From contig JBJPGE010000001.1 in assembly GCA_048595465.1 (NCBI GenBank), positions 4,445-68,444 of the forward strand: DNA of 64,000 bases, read 5' to 3'. Position 1 is the first letter of the stretch. The number at the start of each line of letters is the position of its first letter. This document shows positions 4,071 to 60,870 of this stretch, in pieces. The translations under genes were made by a program, and so were the position numbers. Source of the DNA: Methylophagaceae bacterium. GTDB taxonomy: Bacteria > Pseudomonadota > Gammaproteobacteria > Nitrosococcales > Methylophagaceae. The notes beneath the pieces were generated by a model. It saw nothing but the letters and a program-made list of their open reading frames with translations, searched no databases and had not been told where the DNA came from.

Positions 4071-4876
4071 TGTTTATAGAATTATTACATTCCCTAGCTG
4101 GAGTCTTCGTTCAGACTGTGAAAGATATTGTGCCGATTGCTATTATTATTTTTGGCTTCCAGCTATTTGTTATACGTAAACCTATCCCGAATTTGAAAAA
4201 AGTATTGATTGGTTTTTTTTATGTACTCATTGGATTAGTGTTCTTTTTAGAAGGTTTGGATCTTGCTTTATTCCCTCTAGGTAAATTGATGGCGAGCCAG
4301 CTAACGGATCCCACTTTTATTTTTGGCGAGTTGGCTTCAATTCCCGATGTTATTCATTGGCGTGATTATATGTGGGTCTATATCTTTGCTGCAGCAATTG
4401 GGTTTGCAACGACTATTGCCGAACCGTCATTGATTGCTGTCGCGATAAAAGCACAAGAGGTATCAGGTGGTGCTATTTCTGTATGGGGTTTACGTATAGC
4501 CGTTGCGATTGGTGTGGCGGCAGGAGTCTCGTTAGGTACGTTTAGAATCATCACCGGAACACCTTTGCAGTATTACATTATGGCGGGTTACGTAATTGTG
4601 ATTATTCAGACATTTTATGCCCCAAAATTGATTATCGCCCTTGCTTATGATTCGGGCGGCGTAACGACTTCAACAGTGACTGTACCCTTAGTTGCGGCAT
4701 TAGGAATTGGCCTTGCTTCAACTGTGCCGGGGCGAAGTACTTTATTAGATGGCTTTGGTTTGATTGCCTTTGCCAGTTTATTTCCAATTATGAGCGTAAT
4801 GGCCTATGCACAATTAACAGAGTGGCAGGCAAAAAAAGCCAAGCGTAAACAACAGAGTAATAAGGAGAAACAATAA
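4070..4876 (+). CDS. DUF1538 family integral membrane protein (paralog 2)
   Basis: Same motif set ([49 protein letters not shown]). Its start overlaps the stop of paralog 1 (ATAATG), consistent with translational coupling. Confidence 0.7.
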   Translation: MFIELLHSLAGVFVQTVKDIVPIAIIIFGFQLFVIRKPIPNLKKVLIGFFYVLIGLVFFLEGLDLALFPLGKLMASQLTDPTFIFGELASIPDVIHWRDYMWVYIFAAAIGFATTIAEPSLIAVAIKAQEVSGGAISVWGLRIAVAIGVAAGVSLGTFRIITGTPLQYYIMAGYVIVIIQTFYAPKLIIALAYDSGGVTTSTVTVPLVAALGIGLASTVPGRSTLLDGFGLIAFASLFPIMSVMAYAQLTEWQAKKAKRKQQSNKEKQ

Positions 4877-5226
4877 TGCATTTTAAATTAATTATATGTT
4901 TTGTAGAAGACGGGCATACCGATGAAGTGCTTGAGGCTGCTAGAGAGGCGGGTGCTACAGGTTCAACCATCATAAATAATGCACGTGGTGAAGGCTTGAA
5001 TAAAAGCAAAACCTTTTTTGGGATGAGTCTTGAAACGCAACGTGATGTGATTTTATTTTTAGTGGAACAACATTTAAGTCGCCATATTCTAGAAACAATA
5101 GAAAAAGCAGGCCAGTTTGATGAGAAGCCGGGAACAGGTATTGCCATTCAAATTGATGTTGAAGATGCTGTCGGTGTCTCACATCAAATACAAACATTAC
5201 ATAATATTGTAGAGGAAGAACTATGA
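4876..5226 (+). CDS. P-II family (GlnB-like) small signal-transduction protein
   Basis: 116 aa. The N-terminus KLIICFVEDGHTDEVLEAAREAGATGSTII and overall size fit the P-II-like ferredoxin fold. Its start overlaps the upstream stop (TAATG). Confidence 0.65.
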   Translation: MHFKLIICFVEDGHTDEVLEAAREAGATGSTIINNARGEGLNKSKTFFGMSLETQRDVILFLVEQHLSRHILETIEKAGQFDEKPGTGIAIQIDVEDAVGVSHQIQTLHNIVEEEL

Positions 5227-5621
5227 AACCAAAAGAGATTGTCCGCGTTCGTGATGTGATGCGACCTGAAATTGATATTGTTGATGGAATGACTACCATT
5301 ACAGACGCATTAAATGAAATGAAAAACCTGAAAAATAAAATGTTGATTGTTGATAAGCGCCATGATGACGACGAATATGGCGTAGTGCGAATGTCTGACA
5401 TTGCATATCATGTTTTGGCTCAAGACAAATCACCCGATCGTGTTAATGTCTATGAAATCATGATTAAACCAGCTATTACCGTTGATGCCTCAATGGATAT
5501 TAGATATTGTGCCCGTCTATTTGAACGTTTCAAATTGTCACGCGCACCTGTGATGGAGAATGGCAAGTTGGTGGGAGTGGTAAGTTTGACTAGAATGGTT
5601 GTGCAAGGCATTAGAAAGTAA
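5223..5621 (+). CDS. CBS domain pair protein
   Basis: 132 aa with two CBS-like repeats (VRDVMRPEIDIV... and VYEIMIKPAITV...GKLVGVVSLTRMV). 4-nt overlap with the P-II-like gene. Confidence 0.75.
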   Translation: MKPKEIVRVRDVMRPEIDIVDGMTTITDALNEMKNLKNKMLIVDKRHDDDEYGVVRMSDIAYHVLAQDKSPDRVNVYEIMIKPAITVDASMDIRYCARLFERFKLSRAPVMENGKLVGVVSLTRMVVQGIRK

Positions 5622-5622
5622 G

Positions 5623-6168
5623 ATGAATATCAAGCCCGACGGCTTATTAGCTGGCGTTCGTTACCGCTCATCGCCTAACAAGGATGAACGTATTGATGCG
5701 GCTGATATTACAGGAATAGTTATTCATAATATCAGTCTGCCTCCCGGTGAATTTGGTGGTGGTTGGATCGATGATTTGTTTCTCAATAAGCTTGATCCAA
5801 CTGTGCATCCTTATTTTGAACAAATAGCTGACATGCGTGTTTCAGCTCATTTATTGATAAGACGTGATGGTGAAGTGATTCAATATGTGCCTTTTTATCA
5901 ACGCGCATGGCATGCAGGTGTTTCAAAGTGGGATGAACGTGATTGCTGTAATGATTTTACCGTTGGTATTGAAATAGAAGGTTCTGATGATCAGGATTTT
6001 GAACAAATACAATATCAGCAATTAGCCCAAGTCATTCTGTTGCTTTGTGAATATTATCCTTCCTTATCAGCGGACCGAATAAAAGGTCACCAAGAGATCG
6101 CGCCGGACCGAAAAACCGATCCAGGGCCACATTTTGATTGGACGTATTTAGCTGAGTTAATACGTTGA
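5623..6168 (+). CDS. ampD: 1,6-anhydro-N-acetylmuramyl-L-alanine amidase AmpD
   Basis: YRSSPNKDERIDAADITGIVIHNISLPPGEFGG, AWHAGVS and KGHQEIAPDRKTDPGPHFDW are typical of AmpD. The ORF-track start at 5599 overlaps the CBS gene; ATG 5623 is preferred. Confidence 0.88.
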   Translation: MNIKPDGLLAGVRYRSSPNKDERIDAADITGIVIHNISLPPGEFGGGWIDDLFLNKLDPTVHPYFEQIADMRVSAHLLIRRDGEVIQYVPFYQRAWHAGVSKWDERDCCNDFTVGIEIEGSDDQDFEQIQYQQLAQVILLLCEYYPSLSADRIKGHQEIAPDRKTDPGPHFDWTYLAELIR

Positions 6169-6199
6169 ATACAAACAAGCGTGGTATCATATACAGCAT

Positions 6200-7570
6200 A
6201 TGATATCACTGAAAAAAATCTTTTCTGTAGTGAGGAAAAAGAAGAATATTCCAGCAACAGATGGTGCTCAGAAAAGCGATCCGATTGTAATACCTCGATC
6301 AGAACACAGCATTTCTCGGAAACAGATTGATCCCCATGCCTTAAAAATCCTCTACCGTCTGAAAGATGCTGGCTTTGACGCCTATCTTGTTGGCGGTTGT
6401 GTGCGCGATTTATTATTAGGACATGAACCTAAAGATTTTGATGTTACTACCAATGCATCTCCTGAAGAAGTTCATAAATTATTTAAGAAAAGTCGTTTAA
6501 TTGGTCGACGATTCAAATTAGTACATGTTGGCTTTGGCCGCAATGTAATTGAAGTGGCTACCTTTAGGGCGCCGCCAGAAGCTGATCAGCACGTTGATGG
6601 ACGTATTATGCGCGATAATGTGTTTGGCACATTAGAGCAGGATGCATGGCGTCGTGACTTCACCATTAATGCTTTGTATTACGATATTCGCGATTTTTCG
6701 ATAATCGATTATACAGGCGGCATTGCTGATTTAGAGGCGGGGAAAATTAGATTAATTGGTGATGTGGAAACACGTTATCGTGAAGATCCTGTGCGCATGT
6801 TGCGCGCCTTACGTTTTGTGGGGAAATTAGGTTTGCGCCTAGATGGTGAAACAGAACGTTTTATTCCGCAACTTGCTAACTTGTTAGCTGATATTCCAGC
6901 CGCACGTTTATTTGATGAATCACTAAAGTTATATTTAACAGGTAATGCAGCGGTGACGCATGAACTATTATGTCATTATGAGGTTTTTGAGGTGTTGTTT
7001 CCACAAACGGCGGCATTGCTCCATACCGAGCAAGATAATTATCCACGTACCTTAATTACTAAGGCGTTAGAAAATACCGATATTCGTATTGATGATGGCA
7101 AACCTGTCACGCCGGCATTTCTGTTTGCGGCGTTAATGTGGGAGCCGGTGAGACAACGCTGGCAAGAACATAAAGATCGTAAAATACCGCCCATTCCAGC
7201 GTTGCAACGTGCGGCAACTGAAGTTATTTCAGAGCAAGTTCGTCGTGTTGCCGTGCCTAAGCGTTTTACGTTGATGACACGCGATATTTGGACATTGCAA
7301 ATCCGTTTAGAGCAACGATTCGGTAAAAAAGCATATAGAACATTAACCCATCCAAAGTTTAGGGCGGGCTATGACTTTTTATTGCTACGCGTGCAAGCCG
7401 GTGAGCCTTTATCTGAATTAGCGGATTGGTGGACGGAGTTTCAAGAGGCTGAAGAATCGCAGCAACAGAAAATGGTTAATAGTTTGTCAGCGACACAGGC
7501 GGGCGCTCCACGCAAACGTCGTAAACGAAGACGTAAAAAACCTGCTGCTAAGAGTGTAGCTAGTGAATAA
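6200..7570 (+). CDS. pcnB: poly(A) polymerase I
   Basis: VIPRSEHSISRKQI..ALKILYRLKDAGFDAYLVGGCVRDLLLG is colinear with the PcnB N-terminus. Basic KRRKRRRKK tail. Confidence 0.92.
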   Translation: MISLKKIFSVVRKKKNIPATDGAQKSDPIVIPRSEHSISRKQIDPHALKILYRLKDAGFDAYLVGGCVRDLLLGHEPKDFDVTTNASPEEVHKLFKKSRLIGRRFKLVHVGFGRNVIEVATFRAPPEADQHVDGRIMRDNVFGTLEQDAWRRDFTINALYYDIRDFSIIDYTGGIADLEAGKIRLIGDVETRYREDPVRMLRALRFVGKLGLRLDGETERFIPQLANLLADIPAARLFDESLKLYLTGNAAVTHELLCHYEVFEVLFPQTAALLHTEQDNYPRTLITKALENTDIRIDDGKPVTPAFLFAALMWEPVRQRWQEHKDRKIPPIPALQRAATEVISEQVRRVAVPKRFTLMTRDIWTLQIRLEQRFGKKAYRTLTHPKFRAGYDFLLLRVQAGEPLSELADWWTEFQEAEESQQQKMVNSLSATQAGAPRKRRKRRRKKPAAKSVASE

Positions 7571-8054
7571 CATATTTATCGGATTGGGCAGTAATTTATC
7601 TGATCCTATCCAACAGGTATTAATGGCAATGGAAGCATTAAAAAAAATTCCTGAAACACGCGTAGTTAAAAAATCATCGCTTTATGCCAGTCCGCCAATG
7701 GGGCCGCAAGATCAACCCGATTATGTCAATGCCGTTGTGGAATTAAACAGTGAATTATCGGCACATAAATTATTAGATCAACTGCAAACTATTGAGCAAC
7801 AGCAGGGTCGGGTACGTTTAAGACATTGGGGAGAACGTACGCTTGATTTAGATATACTGGTGTATAGCGAGCAGAAGATTGATGATGAGCGCTTAACTGT
7901 TCCGCATTCTGGTATCAAAGAGCGGGCGTTTGTACTTTATCCACTAGCAGAAATTGCTTCCGACCTAATTATTCCGCAATTTGGAAATATAGCCAATTTA
8001 GTTCAAAATTGTTCTCGAGCTGGTTTAAACAAAATAAATTTAGATTTAATATGA
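7563..8054 (+). CDS. folK: 2-amino-4-hydroxy-6-hydroxymethyldihydropteridine diphosphokinase
   Basis: IGLGSNL, QPDYVNAVVEL, RHWGERTLDLDIL and ERAFVLYPLAEI are HPPK motifs. GTG start overlaps the pcnB end. Confidence 0.9.
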   Translation: MNNIFIGLGSNLSDPIQQVLMAMEALKKIPETRVVKKSSLYASPPMGPQDQPDYVNAVVELNSELSAHKLLDQLQTIEQQQGRVRLRHWGERTLDLDILVYSEQKIDDERLTVPHSGIKERAFVLYPLAEIASDLIIPQFGNIANLVQNCSRAGLNKINLDLI

Positions 8055-8707
8055 GTACATTAGAAACACCACATCGTTATATTGCTGTTGAAGGCCCTAT
8101 TGGAGTGGGTAAAACCCACTTGGTCAAACGACTGGCTGAGAGCTTTTCAGGCACAACGGTGCTGGAGCAGCCGGAGAATAATCCTTTTTTAGAAAAGTTT
8201 TACATTCACCCAAAACAATCAGCATTACCAACACAATTAAGTTTTTTAATGCAACGAGTACGTTTAAGTAAAGAGCTGCAGCAAGATGATCTATTTTCTA
8301 GCCTAAAAGTAACGGATTTTATGGTTGAAAAAGATCGTATTTTTGCACAAATCACCTTAGATGATGACGAACTTGCTCTCTATAATATGGTCTATGATAA
8401 TCTGACCATGCAGCATCGCATTCCTGATTTAGTGATTTATTTACAAGCACCGATGACGGTGTTGAAAGCGCGGGTAAACCAACGCGGTATAGGCTATGAA
8501 CAACGTATTGAAGATGGTTATCTTCAAAGGCTAGCGGACAGTTATGCTGACTTTTTTCATTATTATGATGCATCACCGTTATTGATAGTGAATGCTGAAC
8601 AAATTGACTTGGTTAATAGTGAGCAAGATTACCAAAATTTATTAGAGCAAATTAGCACATTGACCAGCGGCCGACATTATTACAATCCGCTTCCAGTGAG
8701 AAAGTAG
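8051..8707 (+). CDS. deoxynucleoside kinase family protein
   Basis: P-loop IAVEGPIGVGKTHL, then the dNK-type pattern (DFMVEKDRIFA, VIYLQAP, RGIGYEQ). ATG 8051 overlaps the folK stop (ATATGA). Confidence 0.75.
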   Translation: MSTLETPHRYIAVEGPIGVGKTHLVKRLAESFSGTTVLEQPENNPFLEKFYIHPKQSALPTQLSFLMQRVRLSKELQQDDLFSSLKVTDFMVEKDRIFAQITLDDDELALYNMVYDNLTMQHRIPDLVIYLQAPMTVLKARVNQRGIGYEQRIEDGYLQRLADSYADFFHYYDASPLLIVNAEQIDLVNSEQDYQNLLEQISTLTSGRHYYNPLPVRK

Positions 8708-8718
8708 AAGGTTAGAGT

Positions 8719-9519
8719 ATGACGCGATTGAACTTAACAGATTTGCAAGAAATGAAAGCGCAGCAAAATAAAATCACAATGCTGACTTCGTATGATGCTA
8801 GTTTTAGCCGAATAATGGATGCGTCAGGTGTCGATATGATTTTGGTGGGTGATTCGCTTGGCACAGTGGTACAAGGGCATGAAAGTACAGTCCCTGTGAC
8901 TGTTGACGATATGATCTACCATTGTCGTCATGTATTGCGTGGTAGCCAACGCGCATTTGTTGTTATTGATATGCCTTTTATGAGCTATGCAACACCGCAG
9001 CAAGCAGCTCAAAATGCTGCTCGTTTGATGACCAGTGGTGGTGCACACATGGTCAAATTAGAAGGTGGTGGGGCAGTTATTGAAGAAACGGTTCGTGAGC
9101 TGACTGAGCGGGGCATTCCTGTTTGTGGGCATCTAGGATTATTACCCCAATCGGAACATAGATTGAGTGGCTATCAATCTCAAAAATGGAGTGAGCAGAC
9201 CGTACAAAAACTACTTAAAGACGCTAAAGGTTTGCAACAAGCAGGTGCTGAAATGGTGGTGCTTGCATGTGTTCCCGCTACGGTAGGCGCCCAGATAACA
9301 GCTGAACTGACTATTCCAGTGATTGGCTTTGGGGCCGGTAGATCATGCGATGGGCAAGTACTTATTTTATACGATATGCTTGGTATTTCCGCAGGGAAAA
9401 CACAAGCTTTTAATCATGATTTTTTAGCAGATGAGGGTAATGTTCTCGGTGCAATTAAGAAATACGTGCGGGATGTGAAAAGTGGCGATTTTCCTCAGCC
9501 ACAGCATGAGTACGAATGA
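8719..9519 (+). CDS. panB: 3-methyl-2-oxobutanoate hydroxymethyltransferase
   Basis: KITMLTSYDASF, ILVGDSLG, VVIDMPFMSY and VKLEGG are typical PanB motifs. Confidence 0.93.
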   Translation: MTRLNLTDLQEMKAQQNKITMLTSYDASFSRIMDASGVDMILVGDSLGTVVQGHESTVPVTVDDMIYHCRHVLRGSQRAFVVIDMPFMSYATPQQAAQNAARLMTSGGAHMVKLEGGGAVIEETVRELTERGIPVCGHLGLLPQSEHRLSGYQSQKWSEQTVQKLLKDAKGLQQAGAEMVVLACVPATVGAQITAELTIPVIGFGAGRSCDGQVLILYDMLGISAGKTQAFNHDFLADEGNVLGAIKKYVRDVKSGDFPQPQHEYE

Positions 9520-10367
9520 AAACAGTTAAAACTGTCGCAGAACTTCGACAGCAAATTACAGAGTGGAAGCAAGCGGGCCAACGAATTGTATTGGTGCCGA
9601 CCATGGGTAATTTACACCAGGGGCATTTATCGTTGGTAAAAAAAGCAAAAAAACTGGCGAATAAAGTGATTGTCAGTATATTTGTAAACCCTTTACAGTT
9701 TGATGATAAGACTGATTTGTCGGCTTACCCGCGTACTTTAGAAGCTGATATTGAGCAACTTGTAGCTGTCGAATGTGACGCTGTATTTACACCTACGGCG
9801 CAAACAATGTATCCCTACGGAATGGATGAGCAAACAATTATCACCGTTCCTGGAATGGATGATAAATTATGTGGTCAAGCCCGGCCGGGGCATTTTGATG
9901 GTGTGGCTACCGTTGTCGCTAAACTATTTAATATGGTGCAACCAGATGTGGCCATATTTGGTGAAAAAGACTATCAGCAGTTATTGTTAATCAAAAAAAT
10001 GGTTGCAGACTTAAACCTACCGCTTGAAATAATAGGTTTACCTACGCACCGTGAAGCAAGTGGCTTAGCTATGAGTTCTCGCAATCAATATTTAACAGAA
10101 CAACAGCGAGAACAAGCGGCTTCAATTTATCGAATATTGAGTGAGATTAAGACAAAAATTCTGAAGGGTGAGACCGACTTTGTTAAATTAGAGCAACAAG
10201 CAAAGGATGAATTAACGCAATTAGATTTTGAACCAGACTATGTCGATATTAGGCATTCTGGGAACTTAGAGCCTGCAAAACAGTCAGATAAAGAGCTTAG
10301 AGTTCTCTTAGCCGCTCGATTAGGAAAAGCCCGATTGATCGATAATATTGCCTGCAATCTAGATTAA
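9516..10367 (+). CDS. panC: pantoate--beta-alanine ligase
   Basis: VPTMGNLHQGHLSLV, RPGHFDGVATVV, FGEKDYQQ and SSRN motifs. 4-nt overlap with panB. Confidence 0.93.
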   Translation: MKTVKTVAELRQQITEWKQAGQRIVLVPTMGNLHQGHLSLVKKAKKLANKVIVSIFVNPLQFDDKTDLSAYPRTLEADIEQLVAVECDAVFTPTAQTMYPYGMDEQTIITVPGMDDKLCGQARPGHFDGVATVVAKLFNMVQPDVAIFGEKDYQQLLLIKKMVADLNLPLEIIGLPTHREASGLAMSSRNQYLTEQQREQAASIYRILSEIKTKILKGETDFVKLEQQAKDELTQLDFEPDYVDIRHSGNLEPAKQSDKELRVLLAARLGKARLIDNIACNLD

Positions 10368-10444
10368 TAGTTCATTTTGAATTTGATTGATTTGAGCTAA
10401 AAATGCGATAATACTCCCTAAATTAACTAGGAAATAGTTGGAAT

Positions 10445-10825
10445 ATGCAACTGACATTGCTTAAAACAAAATTACACCGCGCCTGCGTTACGCATTCAGA
10501 ACTTGAATACGAAGGTTCTTGTGCGATTGATAGTAATTTATTGGATGCTGCTGGTATTCATGAATATGAACAGATCCACATATACAATGTCACCAATGGT
10601 GAACGCTTTACAACGTATGCAATTCGCGCCGAAGCAAACTCTAACATTATTTCTGTTAATGGTGCGGCAGCACATAAAGCTTCACCGGGCGATCGTATTA
10701 TCATCTGCGCCTATACAACACTAGATGAAAAAGAAGTCGCTAAATTCAAACCAACACTGGTTTATTTAGATGAAAAGAATGGCATAGTTAATACACGTCA
10801 TGCGATCCCAGTTCAAGCAGCCTAA
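10445..10825 (+). CDS. panD: aspartate 1-decarboxylase
   Basis: [33 protein letters not shown] contains the Gly-Ser self-processing site. 126 aa. Confidence 0.93.
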
Positions 10826-54971: not shown

Positions 54972-56989
54972 CGACAGCACTGTTACGCGTCAGCGGGTTG
55001 AAAACATGGTTGGGCGATAAAGCGCGACCACTGCGTGCGGTAGATGGGGTTGATTTTACGATTGGCCGCGGCGAAACCTTTGCGCTTTTAGGCGAGTCAG
55101 GTTGTGGTAAGTCGATGGCCGCATTATCGTTACTTCGTCTTAATCCTCAGCCTGTTAGCGAAATTAAAGACGGACAGATTTATTTTAATAATCACGACCT
55201 GCTATCACTCTCAGAGATGGAAATGCAAAGCATACGAGGCCGGCGTATTGCTATGATTTTCCAAGAGCCACAAAGCTCGCTTAACCCCGTTTTATCTGTA
55301 GCAGAGCAAATATCAGAATGTTTACAGTGGCATAATTATTCTAAACAACAGCTAAGCGAAAAGGTTATTGATTTATTAGAATCGGTAGGTATTTCTGATC
55401 CTAGGCAGCGCATGCATGCTTATCCTCATCAATTATCAGGTGGTATGAAGCAACGCGTGATGATTGCAATGGCGCTAGCCGGTGAACCTGAACTATTGAT
55501 TGCTGATGAACCTACCACAGCCTTAGATGTCACTATTCAGGCACAGATATTAGATTTGTTAAAAGATATTCAAGTCAGAACAGGCATGGCAATACTACTG
55601 ATCAGCCACGACTTAGCTGTTGTTGCTCAAATGGCCGATCATGTGGCTGTTATGTATGCAGGACAGATTGTTGAAACGGGATCGAGCGAACAGTTTTTCA
55701 AAAATCCACAACATCCGTATTCAAAGAAGCTATTTGATGCATTACCGACCCAGCAAAAACGGCAACAGAGGCTAACGGTTATCAAAGGCCAAGTGCCTAA
55801 GCTGGACCAAGAATTCGAAGGCTGCCGATTTGCAGCTCGCTGTGAGCGTGTTGAGCAACGTTGCCATGAACAACCTCCTAATTGGTATGAAGATGACAAA
55901 CAAGGTGTCCGCTGCCATTTATTTAGTGAGGAAGGCTTGAAAAAGGTTCCACAGGCCAAAGATACGGAACATTTATCACTACTGTCAGAAGTAGTACCAA
56001 CTGAAAGAATAGTATTAGAACTGACGTCGCTATCGGTATATTTCCCGATTCGAAAAGGTTTATTACAAAGAGTAGTTGGGAATGTGCGGGCTGTAGATGA
56101 TGTGAGCTTAACATTAAATCAGGCTGAAACGGTTGCGTTAGTGGGGGAATCAGGCTGTGGTAAAACAAGTTTTGCGAAAGGGATTTTACAACTAATACCG
56201 ATAACAGATGGCCGTATTAATTACCTTGGTAATAAACTGAATGGATTATCGGAGCGGCAATTAAAGCAATATCGCGCATCGATACAAATGATATTTCAAG
56301 ATCCATTTTCATCAATGAACCCGAGAATGACCATTACTCAAATTATTGAAGAGGGTATGTTAGCAAAACGAGATCAAACAGATCCCTTAGCCAAATCAAA
56401 AAGAATCAGTGAATTATTAGAACGTGTTGGTTTACCATCAGATATAAAACACCGCTATCCTCATGAGTTTTCGGGAGGGCAGCGCCAACGGATATGTATT
56501 GCAAGGGCATTAGCAGCAGATCCTAAAGTGATTATTTGTGATGAGCCGACCAGTGCATTGGATGTTTCTGTACAGGCGCAAATACTCAATTTATTACGCG
56601 ATATTCAGCATGAATATGGCTTAACATATTTGTTCATTAGTCATAATATTGCCGTAGTAAATTATCTAGCAAATCGTGTAGCGGTGATGTATTTAGGACG
56701 TATTGTCGAGCAAGGTGAACGTGATAAAGTGCTAAACTCACCAAAACATCCCTATACACAGGCTTTATTGGCTGCTGTTCCAGAAATAGATAAAAATAAG
56801 CAACGTAATGTCATCCGCTTAGAAGGTGAATTACCCTCAGCCACCAATCCACCAGAGGGTTGTCACTTTCATCAACGATGTCCACAAGTAATGCCTATAT
56901 GTAGGCAAAAATACCCACAACAAACTGCATTATCAAAGATTCATGAAGTGCGATGTTTTTTATACGAGGAAAATGAAAACAATGGATAA
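54968..56989 (+). CDS. ABC transporter ATP-binding protein, duplicated ATPase (YejF/DppDF-type fusion)
   Basis: Two complete NBDs (GESGCGKS x2, LSGGMKQR / FSGGQRQR, Walker B IADEPTTALD / ICDEPTSALD), each with the oligopeptide-type C-terminal Cys-containing extension. Confidence 0.88.
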   Translation: MTTALLRVSGLKTWLGDKARPLRAVDGVDFTIGRGETFALLGESGCGKSMAALSLLRLNPQPVSEIKDGQIYFNNHDLLSLSEMEMQSIRGRRIAMIFQEPQSSLNPVLSVAEQISECLQWHNYSKQQLSEKVIDLLESVGISDPRQRMHAYPHQLSGGMKQRVMIAMALAGEPELLIADEPTTALDVTIQAQILDLLKDIQVRTGMAILLISHDLAVVAQMADHVAVMYAGQIVETGSSEQFFKNPQHPYSKKLFDALPTQQKRQQRLTVIKGQVPKLDQEFEGCRFAARCERVEQRCHEQPPNWYEDDKQGVRCHLFSEEGLKKVPQAKDTEHLSLLSEVVPTERIVLELTSLSVYFPIRKGLLQRVVGNVRAVDDVSLTLNQAETVALVGESGCGKTSFAKGILQLIPITDGRINYLGNKLNGLSERQLKQYRASIQMIFQDPFSSMNPRMTITQIIEEGMLAKRDQTDPLAKSKRISELLERVGLPSDIKHRYPHEFSGGQRQRICIARALAADPKVIICDEPTSALDVSVQAQILNLLRDIQHEYGLTYLFISHNIAVVNYLANRVAVMYLGRIVEQGERDKVLNSPKHPYTQALLAAVPEIDKNKQRNVIRLEGELPSATNPPEGCHFHQRCPQVMPICRQKYPQQTALSKIHEVRCFLYEENENNG

Positions 56990-57239
56990 ACAAACACAGT
57001 TAGAACTTGAGGCTGCAGCATTTCGCCGTTTAACAAGTCATTTACAAGAACGTACGGATGTACAAAATATTGATTTAATGGATCTTGCTGGCTTTTGCCG
57101 TAATTGTTTAGCTAAATGGTATTTGGCGGCGGCAGAAGGTAAGGAGGTAAAGATTGATTATGATCAAGCACGCGAGCATGTTTATGGCATGCCTTATGAT
57201 GAATGGAAAGGTAAATATCAAACAGGGCTCAAGCGTTAA
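56973..57239 (+). CDS. DUF1244 family protein
   Basis: LELEAAAFRRLTSHLQERTDVQNIDLMDLAGFCRNCLAKWY is characteristic of the family. The start (56973 or 56982) overlaps the ABC ATPase end. Confidence 0.65.
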   Translation: MKTMDKQTQLELEAAAFRRLTSHLQERTDVQNIDLMDLAGFCRNCLAKWYLAAAEGKEVKIDYDQAREHVYGMPYDEWKGKYQTGLKR

Positions 57240-57478
57240 TGATCGTGACTGTCACACAAGTCATGTAGTTTTTTAGCTAATGCCTGGGTATCTGTGGTGT
57301 CGTCTTCTTTAGGTTTGGAAACGGTAATCACAGAAATGGTAGAACGAATTTGCTGCAGGTAATTGCGGCAGCAACTGCATAATAATAGGTGAAAAAATAA
57401 ACCCACGCGTTTACCTAGCGGTAGATCGCCATCAATATAGTTGTTTACTTCATCTGCAATGTCTTTACATTGATACAT
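57236..57478 (-). CDS. zinc-finger (ZAS, HxxxCxxC) anti-sigma factor, soluble
   Basis: 80 aa. HLLLCSCC matches H-x3-C-x2-C. No TM segment. Its start codon directly abuts the sigma gene stop (TGA/ATG junction at 57478/57479). Confidence 0.7.
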   Translation of the reverse strand: MYQCKDIADEVNNYIDGDLPLGKRVGLFFHLLLCSCCRNYLQQIRSTISVITVSKPKEDDTTDTQALAKKLHDLCDSHDH

Positions 57479-58093
57479 TCAGTTGGTGTCCTGATATTTT
57501 TCGATTGTGTGGTGCAATGCTGTTCGAGCCCTATGTAGCAATACCCGTACATTAGACGCGGACACGTCAAGAATGTTACAAATTTCTTTCATTTCGATGC
57601 CTTCCATATCGTATAGCGTTAAGGCGGCACGTTGCTGGGCGGGTAATTGTTGGAAGCTTTGTTCTATAATTTCTTGTAATTGATCATTGGCTAATATTGC
57701 CTCGGGGGTGGCTTGTTCCCAAGCAAACACATCATCATATCTATGGCCTATATTATCAAATTTGTCAGAGGATACAGATTGCCAACCTTCATCTAAAGAG
57801 CTATGCCTATTCTCTCGACGAACACGGCTTTTGGCACCGTTACTGACGATATGAAGTAACCATGTTTTTAATGAAGAGCGCCCTTCAAATTTTGGTAATG
57901 CTTTAATAGCTGAGATCCAGGCATCTTGCACAACCTCATCAGCAAACGCTTCACCGACAATAGCTCTAGCCACAGATATCATAAGGTTCTGATATTCTGA
58001 AACTACTTTTTCAAAAGCAAGCTGATCACCACCGATTAATTGTTTAATTAAGCGTTTTTCATCTTGAGATTTTAATTTTGAAAAAAGTTTCAT
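57479..58093 (-). CDS. RNA polymerase ECF-type sigma-70 family factor
   Basis: Region 2 (FEKVVSEYQNLMISVARAIVG...DAWISA) and region 4 HTH (EICNILDVSASNVRVLLHRAR). About 200 aa. Confidence 0.85.
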   Translation of the reverse strand: MKLFSKLKSQDEKRLIKQLIGGDQLAFEKVVSEYQNLMISVARAIVGEAFADEVVQDAWISAIKALPKFEGRSSLKTWLLHIVSNGAKSRVRRENRHSSLDEGWQSVSSDKFDNIGHRYDDVFAWEQATPEAILANDQLQEIIEQSFQQLPAQQRAALTLYDMEGIEMKEICNILDVSASNVRVLLHRARTALHHTIEKYQDTN

Positions 58094-58100
58094 TTGATTT

Positions 58101-58127
58101 GTAACAAATCCATTTTATGGGTGTCTA
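58101..58127 (+). promoter_or_regulatory. candidate ECF-type promoter upstream of the Cys-Gly repeat gene
   Basis: gtAACaaa - 18 nt - gTCTAtg resembles the AAC / TCT(A) spacing of ECF sigma promoters, about 65 nt upstream of ATG 58191. Pattern match by eye only. Confidence 0.25.
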
Positions 58128-58190
58128 TGTTAGCAAGCTGAGTCATGAATGACCGGTTGTTATTATTTTTTACAATACTATAGGAAATTT

Positions 58191-58574
58191 ATGATGTCTA
58201 TTACTACTAATAAAAAAACAATTGCACTAGTAGCTGGTGCTGCATTAACTGCTGGTGTTGCACTGTCTCCGACTTTAGCAAGTGCTGAAACAATAAACCC
58301 ATTTGCATCTGCTGAACTATCTAGCGGTTATATGCAGCTTGCTGAAGGAAAATGTGGCGGTGATATGAAAGATGCCGAAGCTAAGTGTGGTAGTGATATG
58401 GGCAAAGATGCTGAAGCTAAATGCGGTGCTGACAAAAAAGCTGAAGGCAAATGTGGTGAAGCTAAATGTGGTGCGGATAAAAAAGCTGAAGGCAAGTGTG
58501 GTGAAGCTAAATGCGGCGCTGATAAAAAAGCTGAAGGCAAATGTGGTGAAGCTAAATGTGGCGCTGATAAATAA
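58191..58574 (+). CDS. secreted HvfA/bufferin-like Cys-Gly repeat protein (putative metallophore precursor)
   Basis: Signal peptide ...SPTLASA/ET, then NPFASAELSSGYMQLAEGKCGG and nine K-C-G motifs (EGKCGEAKCGADKKA x3). AGGA RBS before ATG 58191; the ORF-track start at 58149 is judged an extension. Confidence 0.75.
   Translation: MMSITTNKKTIALVAGAALTAGVALSPTLASAETINPFASAELSSGYMQLAEGKCGGDMKDAEAKCGSDMGKDAEAKCGADKKAEGKCGEAKCGADKKAEGKCGEAKCGADKKAEGKCGEAKCGADK
58428..58571 (+). repeat. 45-bp in-frame tandem repeat, about 3.2 copies
   Basis: Units at 58428-58472, 58473-58517, 58518-58562 plus a partial unit. Each encodes ADKKAEGKCGEAKCG and the units differ only at a few synonymous third positions. 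Confidence 0.9.
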
Positions 58575-58601
58575 ACCCGCAGTTCACATCTAATAGTGAA
58601 G

Positions 58602-58628
58602 AAAGGGGCTCTACGGAGCCCTTTTTTA
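58602..58628 (+). terminator. rho-independent terminator between the repeat-protein gene and doxX
   Basis: aaaggggctc-tacg-gagccctttttta: GC-rich stem plus T-tract, 28 nt after the stop codon. Confidence 0.8.
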
Positions 58629-58698
58629 TAAGGTAATTTGTCTTAATTGTATGTGTTAAATGCCATTAAGACAGATGTCCGAATAATAGGAGATAACA

Positions 58699-59283
58699 AT
58701 GTTTATATGTAAAGTTGCTAATACATTTCAAGGTTTATTAAATAAAACCCGCGCGGTTGATTTTTTGGCGCCATTAGCCTTGAGATTATATCTGGCACCA
58801 GTGTTTTGGATGGCGGCGAATAATAAATGGAACCCTTTTGATAGTGGGAGTTCTTTGCAAGGCACAATTGATTGGTTTGGTAATCCTGATTGGGGATTAG
58901 GTTTACCCTTTCCAGAAATTATGGCTCATTTAGCATGGGGTGCCGAATATTTTGGTGCGATTGCTTTGATTTTAGGTTTGGCTGTACGTTGGGTATCTAT
59001 CCCATTAATGGCAACGATGATTGTTGCCGCTCTTACTGTTCATCTTGAAAATGGCTGGTTGGCAATAGCTGAGCCAAGTGCACAGCTAAGTGCAGCGCGA
59101 TCTTTATTAGAAGAGCATGGTAATTATAATTGGTTAACCGAAAATGGTAATTTTGTTATTTTGAACAATGGTATTGAATTTGCTACTACTTATTTCATTA
59201 TGCTGTTGGCCTTATTCTTCATTGGCGCGGGTAAGTATGTCAGTGCTGATTATTGGATAGCTAAAAAATTCTCAAACTGCTAA
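58699..59283 (+). CDS. DoxX family membrane protein (HvfX-like)
   Basis: 194 aa and 4 TM. LALRLYLAPVFWMA and C-terminal FFIGAGKYVSADYWI fit the DoxX pattern. AGGAG RBS. Confidence 0.7.
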   Translation: MFICKVANTFQGLLNKTRAVDFLAPLALRLYLAPVFWMAANNKWNPFDSGSSLQGTIDWFGNPDWGLGLPFPEIMAHLAWGAEYFGAIALILGLAVRWVSIPLMATMIVAALTVHLENGWLAIAEPSAQLSAARSLLEEHGNYNWLTENGNFVILNNGIEFATTYFIMLLALFFIGAGKYVSADYWIAKKFSNC

Positions 59284-59306
59284 TGGGTTATTTTAGGAGA
59301 CTATAA

Positions 59307-60269
59307 ATGTTGATTCGTAAAAAAAGACTAGGTGAGTTACCTGCAAGTGAAATCACCGATCACCAAGTTTATCTTGATCGTAGAAAATTCTTAAATAGCA
59401 GCGCAGCTATTGCAACGGCAAGCTTATTGCCATTAGCCATGGCTAATGCTAAGTCCGGAGTGCCAGAAGCGACTTATTTGGATTTAAAACAAAGTTCATA
59501 TTCAACAGATGATGAATTAACCAGTTATGAATCGGTTACCACCTATAATAATTTTTATGAATTTGGTACGGATAAATCTTCACCCGCCATTACGGCGACA
59601 AAATTTCCTGATAAATCTAAGCCTTGGCGGGTAACAATTGAAGGAGAATGTGATAAACCCGGCGAATATGATTACGACGATTTAATTCGCCCCTTTACAT
59701 TAGAAGAACGCATCTATCGTTTTCGCTGTGTAGAAGGCTGGTCTATGGTTATCCCATGGGTAGGTTTTCCTTTAGCAGATCTTATCAAGCGTGCTCAACC
59801 CAATTCAAAAGCTAAGTTTGTTGAATTTACAACATTATATGATCCAGAACAAATGCCAGGGCAAAGACGGCAAGTGTTAGACTGGCCTTATACGGAAGGT
59901 CTTCGAATAGATGAAGCAATGAATCCACTTACACTATTATCAGTTGGACTGTATGGCAATGAGTTACTGGGGCAAAATGGTGCACCTATTCGCTTAATTG
60001 TGCCATGGAAGTATGGTTTTAAAAGTATTAAATCAATCGTCAATATTCGTTTTGTTGAAGAAATGCCCAACTCGGCTTGGATGAAAGCTGGTCCAAGAGA
60101 GTATGGCTTTTATTCTAATGTAAATCCTGATGTCGATCATCCACGATGGAGCCAAAGCAAAGAGCGACGTTTAGGCGAGTTCTTGAAACGTAAAACAGAA
60201 ATGTTTAACGGCTATGAAGAGCAAGTTGCTGGCTTATATACGGGTATGGACTTAACAAAAAACTTTTAA
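59307..60269 (+). CDS. msrP: protein-methionine-sulfoxide reductase catalytic subunit MsrP (molybdopterin, Tat-exported)
   Basis: Tat signal [52 protein letters not shown] and [16 protein letters not shown] are typical MsrP/YedY motifs. Confidence 0.9.
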
Positions 60270-60273
60270 ATCC

Positions 60274-60870
60274 ATGTCGAAACTTAAAATCTGTTTATTT
60301 ATTGCCAGTTTGATACCTGCAATCTGGCTCACGTATGCCTTGTTAACAAATCAGTTGGGTGCAAACCCCATTGAAGCTATCACGCGTGAATCAGGTTTAT
60401 GGGCATTACGCTTTTTATGGTTAACATTATTAATAACGCCATTACGTTGGTTAACAGGCTGGAATGTCATCGTGACACTTAGGCGCATGCTGGGCCTGTA
60501 TGTGTTTTTTTATGCCACGCTTCATATGCTGCTTTATTTATGGTTAGATCAGTTTTTTGATATTAACGACATAATCAAAGACATTATTAAACGGCCGTTT
60601 ATCACTATTGGCTTTTTTACTTTTACATCACTTATCCCTTTAGCGATAACCTCCAATAACGCTATGGTTAAACGATTGGGCGGAAAACGCTGGAAGAAAT
60701 TACATCGGTTAACCTATTTTATTGCTATTGCCAGCTCAATTCATTTTTATATGCTGGTAAAACAAGATAAAACAGAGCCATTATTTTATATGGCTTTGCT
60801 GGCGATATTATTAGGTGCTCGCATATATCGAACGTATTTACGCCCTAAAATGAGTGCTTTGCAATCTTAA
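60274..60870 (+). CDS. msrQ: protein-methionine-sulfoxide reductase heme-binding subunit MsrQ
   Basis: 198 aa and 6 TM. GLWALRFLWLTLLITPLR, conserved His residues (ATLHMLLY, IHFYM) and WKKLHRLTY. Confidence 0.88.
   Translation: MSKLKICLFIASLIPAIWLTYALLTNQLGANPIEAITRESGLWALRFLWLTLLITPLRWLTGWNVIVTLRRMLGLYVFFYATLHMLLYLWLDQFFDINDIIKDIIKRPFITIGFFTFTSLIPLAITSNNAMVKRLGGKRWKKLHRLTYFIAIASSIHFYMLVKQDKTEPLFYMALLAILLGARIYRTYLRPKMSALQS

Follow-up and report, generated by a model that had tools for sequence, protein, structure and literature searches.

Organization of the locus

A stretch of 64,000 nt from a Methylophagaceae bacterium (GCA_048595465.1, contig JBJPGE010000001.1, positions 4,445-68,444), referred to here as the window, contains a divergent locus in which genes for an anti-sigma factor and an extracytoplasmic function (ECF) sigma factor, on the minus strand, are faced by hvfA, hvfX, msrP, and msrQ on the plus strand (Table 1). 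The hvfA gene encodes a precursor of the type found in canonical hvf copper-metallophore clusters, hvfX a DoxX-family membrane protein, and msrPQ a methionine-sulfoxide reductase with its membrane partner. Missing from the locus are the genes for the two maturases of the canonical clusters, the MNIO enzyme (HvfB) and the DUF2063 protein (HvfC). All of the open reading frames (ORFs) listed in an earlier note on this DNA are present, at its coordinates, in the ORF list of the window.

The calls that the note had made for the genes downstream of the precursor hold, as each protein passed its model above the cut-off. HvfX scored 226.5 bits against NF050144 (cut-off 80), covering 164 of the 165 model positions, and 70.1 bits against Pfam DoxX. 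MsrP, whose translation carries an RRKF twin-arginine motif, reached 468.3 bits against NF003767 (cut-off 207), and MsrQ 183.4 bits against NF003831 (cut-off 130). Only 23 bp separate hvfX from msrP, and 4 bp separate msrP from msrQ. Identical proteins are encoded in two NCBI metagenome-assembled genomes (MAGs) labelled Methylophagaceae bacterium, where HvfX is annotated as 'DoxX family protein' and the anti-sigma factor as 'hypothetical protein'.

On the other strand, the stop codon of the sigma gene directly abuts the ATG of the anti-sigma gene. The solved structure closest to the sigma factor is that of E. coli sigma-E (1OR7, E=4e-22). The anti-sigma factor falls just under the cut-off of NF052368 (48 bits, cut-off 50) and under that of Pfam zf-HC2 (16.4 bits, cut-off 22.2), and RsiW is its closest solved structure (E=0.23). 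Its translation nevertheless carries Cys4 together with His30-x3-Cys34-x2-Cys37, confirming the previous description of an 80-aa HxxxCxxC anti-sigma factor that abuts an ECF sigma factor. In Neisseria MseR, the positions C4 and H30xxxC34xxC37 were shown by mutagenesis to matter (PMC2893595); when the two proteins are compared by position, not by sequence alignment, the anti-sigma factor of the window has the same Cys and His residues.

Table 1. Genes and sequence features of the hvf locus, numbered from the first nucleotide of the window
Feature	Position (nt)	Strand	Basis
Anti-sigma factor gene, soluble ZAS, MseR type, 80 aa	57236-57478	-	ORF and Cys/His pattern
ECF sigma factor gene, 204 aa	57479-58093	-	Pfam Sigma70_r2, Sigma70_r4_2, Sigma70_ECF
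Second putative ECF-type promoter, GTAAC-N17-GTCTA, -10 CGTCTAA	57553-57579	-	Synonymous-site conservation
Putative ECF-type promoter of hvfA, GTAACAAAT-12 nt-TGTCTATG	58101-58129	+	Conserved motif and spacing
hvfA-like precursor gene	58191-58574	+	NF050137
45-bp tandem repeat in the 3' half of hvfA, 3.8 copies, 90% matches, encoding AEGKCGEAKCGADKK	58401-58571	+	
Predicted intrinsic terminator or attenuator, AAAGGGGCTC-tacg-GAGCCCTTTT and T-run	58602-58631	+	Hairpin
27-nt imperfect inverted repeat between terminator and hvfX, 74% complementary	58626-58686	.	
hvfX, DoxX-family membrane protein	58699-59283	+	NF050144, Pfam DoxX
msrP, Tat-exported molybdopterin methionine-sulfoxide reductase	59307-60269	+	NF003767, Pfam Oxidored_molyb
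msrQ, haem-binding membrane partner of MsrP	60274-60870	+	NF003831, Pfam Ferric_reduct

Gene order in relatives and absence of the maturase genes

Related loci were collected in two scans. A genome scan, restricted to one genome per species and using HvfX as the query, returned 78 loci, and a metagenome scan with an alignment of precursors contributed 80 further loci. Gene order was identical in all 27 Methylophagaceae loci from the genome scan, over a range of HvfX identity from 48 to 100%: genes for an ABC transporter, a DUF1244 protein, the anti-sigma factor, and the sigma factor are followed, divergently, by hvfA, hvfX, msrP, msrQ, and aceE. Neither MNIO nor DUF2063 was found within 10 kb in these 27 loci. 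When the window is taken together with both collections, the order without maturase genes is common to 82 Methylophagaceae-type loci (the genome and metagenome collections overlap in some contigs, and the 82 loci are not all independent), and the full set of sigma gene, hvfA, hvfX, msrP, and msrQ is present in 54 of them.

We searched for the maturases with tblastn, using three MNIO and three DUF2063 probes taken from canonical relatives. Neither gene was found in the 64-kb window, nor in the 82 Methylophagaceae-type loci, which amount to 1.1 Mb in total. Pfam scans of the 20 window ORFs of fitting size returned housekeeping genes only, with neither MNIO nor DUF2063 among them. These searches bear out the lack of the maturase pair that was first noticed in the window, and extend it to the Methylophagaceae-type relatives.

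Among approximately 35 more distant Gammaproteobacteria the order is hvfA-MNIO-DUF2063-hvfX, here called canonical. In four canonical loci (L045, L047, L063, and L079) a homologous sigma gene and a ZAS anti-sigma gene lie immediately upstream, and the sigma factor of the window is 33-35% identical to those encoded there. Homologues of the anti-sigma factor adjoin hvf genes in L045, L063, L066, and L067. The earlier note had suggested that the locus might be a distinct module and not a relocated standard operon; that the canonical order occurs in relatives only outside the family, while the maturase-less order is fixed inside it (82 loci), bears this suggestion out.

A second arrangement that includes the maturases, hvfA-hvfX-MNIO-DUF2063, was found on higher-GC metagenome contigs (L132, L136, L137, L142, and L145), the precursors of which share the GYMQLAE leader; the remaining higher-GC loci with this leader are canonical. 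Because removal of its two terminal genes yields the Methylophagaceae arrangement, this order is a plausible ancestor of the latter, as judged from gene order. Other reduced forms exist: hvfA lies directly beside hvfX, without MNIO, in two unrelated MAGs (L031 and L054), and HvfX is encoded alone, or with the sigma pair only, in several lineages (L066, L067, and others). These gene-content states are scattered over a rough HvfX tree.

One of the reduced loci, L067 from Thalassolituus maritimus (4222-10609), encodes an ECF sigma factor, an MseR-type anti-sigma factor (C4, H30xxxC34xxC37), and HvfX together, but neither HvfA nor MNIO. Directly beside this cluster lie genes for a CusA/CusB-like efflux pair and for two small proteins rich in His, an adjacency that provides an independent link between the sigma/HvfX core and copper.

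The HvfA precursor

Although an ATG in frame occurs earlier, at 58149, hvfA probably starts at the ATG at 58191 or 58194, which lies behind an AGGA at 58182-58185. The encoded protein begins with a Sec signal peptide, judged by eye from its K-rich n-region, hydrophobic core, and ASA|ET site, and its mature part reads ETINPFASAELSSGYMQLAEGKCG. It has nine Cys residues, every one of them in a K-C-G motif; both this count and the NPF...GYM signature, reported previously, were borne out by translation and by alignment with canonical precursors. In each repeat (Table 1) the second unit is EAKCG, not EGKCG.

Assignment of the precursor to the HvfA/bufferin-type families, as proposed in the earlier note, stands at one level but not at another. 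Against the 'HvfA family' domain model NF050137 the protein scored 81.7 bits (cut-off 19.5) in four matched stretches; against NF050188, the model for the equivalog of H. influenzae HvfA, it scored 43.9 bits, below the cut-off of 95. By these scores, the precursor is a member of the HvfA/oxazolin (Buf_EGKCG) family at the domain level and is not an HvfA equivalog.

We aligned maturase-less precursors with canonical ones, including those of L045, L063, and L035. The leader residues P36, F37, L42, G45, Y46, and M47 are invariant across both groups. In the maturase-less precursors Gly follows Cys at 215 of 215 sites and Lys precedes it at 88%, as compared with 99% and 79%, respectively, in canonical precursors. 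A near-invariant leader and an unbroken series of Cys-Gly sites indicate that the maturase-less precursors are under purifying selection, with no sign of relaxation.

The number of K-C-G units ranges from 4 to 13 per precursor among the loci, the number of repeats in hvfA varies in frame, and some loci have a tandem double hvfA. The hvfA gene of the window is one 45-bp unit shorter than that of the MAG locus L001 (9448-9876), so that the proteins have 9 and 11 Cys, respectively; the flanking proteins are 100% identical. Either strains differ in repeat number, or the repeat was collapsed during assembly.

Two variants of the precursor were noted. In some precursors, often the second of a tandem pair, the protein ends in a conserved, Cys-free (V/L/I)D(D/K/N)AFMSNNxSYxxAMGK tail (L003 5460-5927; L004 9520-9927; L014 9511-9915; L024 9510-9866; and L022). 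Extra paralogues in L141 (8324-8764, plus strand, and 9615-9953, minus strand) and in L020 (near 8682) retain both a signal peptide and an NPF...GYMQLAE leader, and most or all Cys have been lost from their cores, KCG having become KSG or KNG. These Cys-poor paralogues may be decaying copies, or the leader may have a role that is independent of Cys modification.

We also considered enrichment of Met and His in the cores as a sign of altered metal chemistry or of a link to MsrP, and dropped it as too weak. The cores contain 0.42 Met per Cys, compared with 0.24 (p=0.02 without phylogenetic correction), and the core of the window HvfA has two Met and no His.

Regulatory sequences

The interval that separates the sigma gene from hvfA carries the motif AAC-N17-GTC(T) in 24 of 24 loci and then in 76 of 76; the spacing of the motif is fixed and the sequence of its spacer diverges. 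In canonical loci with a homologous sigma gene the same spacing recurs about 160 bp upstream of hvfA. The window element resembles both the sigma-E consensus of Neisseria, GTMAGBWTT-N12-13-CGTCTAAH (PMC2893595), and the sigma-F motif of Caulobacter, GTAACC-N16-CGAA (PMC3511200). This footprint, present at all 76 loci, supports the predicted control of hvfA by the sigma factor.

Exact matches to GTAAC-N17-GTCTA number only two in the 64-kb window, and both lie in the hvf locus. The second is inside the 3' end of the sigma gene, in the part that encodes region 4, some 70 nt ahead of the anti-sigma ATG, and it is present in 71 of 72 loci. The codons that form its -35 and -10 elements are fixed at synonymous sites: Asn is encoded by AAC in 22 of 23 loci (AAC makes up 32% of the Asn codons of these genes), a third-position G (GCG or TCG) is used in 23 of 23 (background 10-12%), and TCT in 21 of 23 (background 29%). 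Within this 23-locus alignment no such constraint is seen on the four codons of the spacer, which are free to vary; the comparison thereby controls for relatedness of the loci. Conservation of this kind suggests a promoter for sigma-dependent transcription of the anti-sigma gene alone, that is, negative feedback.

The gap between hvfA and hvfX, 124 bp in the window, contains the strong terminator that had been described there: a G+C-rich hairpin with arms at 58602-58611 and 58616-58625, followed by six T. The hairpin is kept in 25 of 25 genome loci and, under a strict pattern, in 56 of 73 loci. Read-through at this hairpin would fit a design in which the precursor is made in large amounts and the accessory proteins in small amounts.

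A proposed copper and oxidant defence module

We consider it probable that the locus constitutes one stress-response module of the Methylophagaceae, derived from the canonical hvf (oxazolin/Buf_EGKCG) copper-metallophore cluster, and the most fitting interpretation is that of an operon for periplasmic defence against copper and oxidants, controlled by the sigma/anti-sigma pair. A thiol-reactive signal (an oxidant, an HOCl-type species, or copper) would release the sigma factor from the anti-sigma factor. The sigma factor would then transcribe hvfA strongly, read-through of a leaky terminator giving a lower level of hvfX-msrPQ, and would also transcribe the anti-sigma gene from the promoter inside its own gene, closing a negative feedback loop. 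HvfA would buffer periplasmic Cu, oxidant, or both through its Cys sites, and MsrPQ would repair oxidised Met in envelope proteins. Such a module would have originated in place from a cluster of the hvfA-hvfX-hvfB-hvfC type that lost its two terminal genes, those of the maturases, and acquired msrPQ.

The state in which HvfA acts is a separate matter. We incline toward the view that it has no dedicated maturase and bears plain thiolates, and we give a nearly even chance to the view that an HvfBC pair is encoded elsewhere in the genome. In its specific form, the latter holds that the oxazolin system of the Methylophagaceae is a standard one and that only its locus is split: HvfB and HvfC, encoded at a distance, would recognise the NPF...GYM leader and convert Cys to thiooxazole or oxazolone-thioamide before Sec export. 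We regard this as a serious contender, if somewhat short of an even prospect. The leader positions that are invariant across canonical and maturase-less precursors, and the similar context of Cys in the two sets, are what it would lead one to expect. Moreover, 97% of the Buf_EGKCG carriers among complete genomes have an MNIO (PMC12452194), and in Caulobacter both BufB and BufC are needed for function (PMC11626156).

Several observations speak against a split locus. Neither maturase was found in the 1.1 Mb around the 82 loci, and the genome scan returned no second, MNIO-linked HvfX locus from any Methylophagaceae assembly. The hvf locus is near aceE, as are many canonical clusters, and simple deletion is therefore more parsimonious than relocation. 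A database query with the MNIO of the closest canonical locus gave more than 8,000 matches; among the 120 listed, none was named Methylophaga and none was on the complete Methylophagaceae chromosome OZ244743.1 or on long metagenome contigs, a result that is uninformative in itself and counts very weakly at best against a split locus. The sole low-GC canonical cluster that was found, the hvfA-B-C-X locus L154 (38% GC), was considered as an in-trans cluster and rejected: its flanking genes metG, rnfABCDGE, nth, and argG match those of L028 and L043 and not those of Methylophagaceae, placing it in a Chromatiales-type genome.

The three Chromatiales-type loci (L028, L043, and L154) share a fixed order of their own, in which metG, rnfABCDGE, nth, and a small conserved gene precede the hvf cluster and argG follows it.

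The defence-operon reading has further evidence to contend with. All the features that mark an MNIO substrate, leader and K-C-G alike, are retained in the precursor, as in-trans maturation predicts; this conservation can be read either way, since it would also suit an unmodified protein that is constrained by its structure or by a partner. Complete genomes that bear a precursor and lack an MNIO number only 67 of 2,583 (PMC12452194), and the copper protection of Caulobacter requires BufB and BufC (PMC11626156). On the evolutionary side, the HvfX tree is a rough neighbour-joining tree without support values; on the regulatory side, we infer the promoters, the read-through, and the inducing signal alike, and the gap between hvfA and hvfX is longer in the window and some relatives, where hvfX-msrPQ may also have a regulated promoter of their own.

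Taken further, that last point would make hvfX-msrPQ an independent unit, governed by another regulator that acts on the inverted repeat, and their synteny with hvfA would not entail co-regulation. We think this unlikely. A strong terminator does follow hvfA, and the 27-nt inverted repeat, which could be an operator or an RNA stem, overlaps a sigma-70-like match (58660-58687, 9 of 12 positions). Comparable hairpins with a TTAAT...ATTAA core are present in L007, L009-L011, L013, L017, and L071; RNAalifold detected weak covariation in the repeat, and no Rfam family reached threshold with it. The sigma-70 scan, however, gave 15 matches where 14.1 were expected, no excess over shuffled sequence, so the overlapping match is no better than chance. 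In nine of the 25 genome loci, moreover, the entire gap between hvfA and hvfX is 68-75 bp, only about 20 bp lie between the end of the T-run and the ATG of hvfX, and there is no inverted repeat, nor were the comparable hairpins seen in short-spacer loci. As these nine gaps leave no space for another promoter, hvfX-msrPQ would be transcribed there only by read-through. The membership of MsrP-family or other Msr genes in the corresponding ECF regulons of Caulobacter and Neisseria also speaks against independence. In favor of it, the msrPQ genes of E. coli have their own two-component regulator.

That hvfA is a decaying remnant left after loss of the maturases, with only hvfX-msrPQ of importance, is very improbable: the possibility has been raised for orphan precursors (PMC12452194) and the Cys-poor paralogues of L141 and L020 recall it, but the main hvfA copy is intact in every locus, with its signal peptide, leader, Cys-Gly sites, promoter, and terminator, even at HvfX identities of 48-70%, its repeat number varies in frame, and some loci maintain two intact tandem copies.

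Returning to the defence operon, we offer a tentative proposal, to which we would assign something less than an even chance, for how its parts might work together. With neither MNIO nor HvfC in the Methylophagaceae, HvfA would have been co-opted as an unmodified periplasmic Cys-repeat protein, the thiolates of which bind Cu(I) or quench oxidants with help from Met and His in the linkers. The leader would serve another partner, such as HvfX; HvfX and MsrQ, both of them quinone-linked membrane proteins, would keep HvfA and MsrP reduced, respectively. If this were true, a role for DoxX/HvfX would be defined for the first time, and maturation would prove dispensable for the HvfA family. The function of orphan precursors is a point raised by others (PMC12452194), and the Methylophagaceae represent a natural experiment in which hvfA and hvfX, with promoter and terminator, have been kept without maturases and joined to msrPQ; their locus could show whether the precursor works unmodified, what HvfX does, and for what reason ECF regulons link copper-metallophore genes to methionine-sulfoxide repair. 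Should the genomes of this family encode an MNIO/HvfC pair elsewhere, the finding would be an unusual operon layout only.

Comparison with known systems

The earlier note had not recognized this combination of genes as described. That view has to be revised, as the sigma-E system of Neisseria, the sigma-F system of Caulobacter, and a survey published in 2025 (PMC12452194) are all precedents.

In Neisseria meningitidis and N. gonorrhoeae, sigma-E and its anti-sigma factor MseR have just two targets, the operon NMB2140-NMB2145 and msrAB (PMC2893595). By its described domains, the operon consists of doxX, a small hypothetical gene, DUF692, DUF2063, and the sigma and anti-sigma genes (PMC2893595, PMC2954202). 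As in the window, an ECF sigma factor is paired with a small soluble ZAS anti-sigma factor, and the -10 element is CGTCTAA-like; the Neisseria regulon unites a doxX/hvfA-like operon with a methionine-sulfoxide reductase, as the regulon predicted for the window would. The two systems differ in that the Neisseria operon includes the maturases, which the window locus lacks, and in that MsrAB is encoded at a separate locus, whereas MsrPQ is encoded in cis. The regulators differ in position as well: the sigma and anti-sigma genes are the last in the Neisseria operon, an arrangement with positive autoregulation, whereas in the window they are divergent, and the promoter inside the sigma gene would drive the anti-sigma gene only.

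Caulobacter sigma-F controls the bufferin operons buf1 and buf2 together with CC2748, an Oxidored_molyb protein annotated as YedY (PMC3511200), which belongs to the MsrP family. Here too an ECF sigma factor is associated with MNIO-type metallophore genes, DoxX, and a YedY/MsrP-family protein, and the promoter starts with GTAAC. In contrast to the window, Caulobacter has precursors that are DUF2282 bufferins and an anti-sigma factor, NrsF, that is a membrane protein with six helices; its MsrP homologue is encoded apart from the bufferin operons, and it both possesses the maturases and depends on them. DoxX is dispensable for both maturation and copper protection in Caulobacter (PMC11626156), and HvfX is dispensable for maturation (PMC11252979, PMC11626156). 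The ECF regulons of Neisseria and of Caulobacter, and the one predicted for these methylotrophs, repeatedly couple copper-metallophore genes with methionine-sulfoxide repair.

The hvf (oxazolin) cluster of nontypeable H. influenzae has the order hvfX(doxX)-hvfA-hvfB-hvfC (PMC11252979). Like the window locus, it combines in one operon an HvfX-type doxX gene and the gene for a Sec-exported precursor in which (E/A)GKCG units recur; the window locus differs in the absence of hvfB and hvfC, in gene order, in the appended msrPQ, and in the adjacent ECF sigma and anti-sigma genes.

According to the 2025 survey, Oxidored_molyb or ferric-reductase genes occur in a few Buf_EGKCG clusters, and there are precursors not linked to MNIO (PMC12452194). 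It therefore covers the same precursor family, neighbours of MsrP/MsrQ type, and MNIO-less genomes; it is, however, centred on MNIO, and the maturase-less form is given without taxa, regulation, or conservation analysis.

What is new here is that a maturase-less form of hvfA-hvfX, fused to msrPQ, is fixed across a bacterial family, and that a conserved predicted ECF promoter and attenuator serve this form, which the alignments place under purifying selection.

MsrP and MsrQ of the window score far above their equivalog cut-offs, and they resemble the periplasmic methionine-sulfoxide repair system MsrPQ (YedYZ) of E. coli in the Tat signal of MsrP and in the organization as a gene pair, here 4 bp apart. 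The E. coli pair has no such neighbours and responds to hypochlorite by way of its own two-component system, whereas in the window msrP and msrQ are downstream of hvfA-hvfX and behind an ECF-type promoter.

The gene next to the regulators, at 56943-57239 on the plus strand, encodes a DUF1244 protein (Pfam, 108.6 bits) with a CRNC motif. It is convergent with the anti-sigma gene and overlaps the stop of the latter by 4 bp. Comparison of the window with the Methylophagaceae-type loci revealed nothing that ties DUF1244 to the module. The gene adjoins the anti-sigma gene in almost every Methylophagaceae-type locus long enough to include it, and the adjacency is kept even where the upstream ABC-transporter gene differs (L005 and L012).

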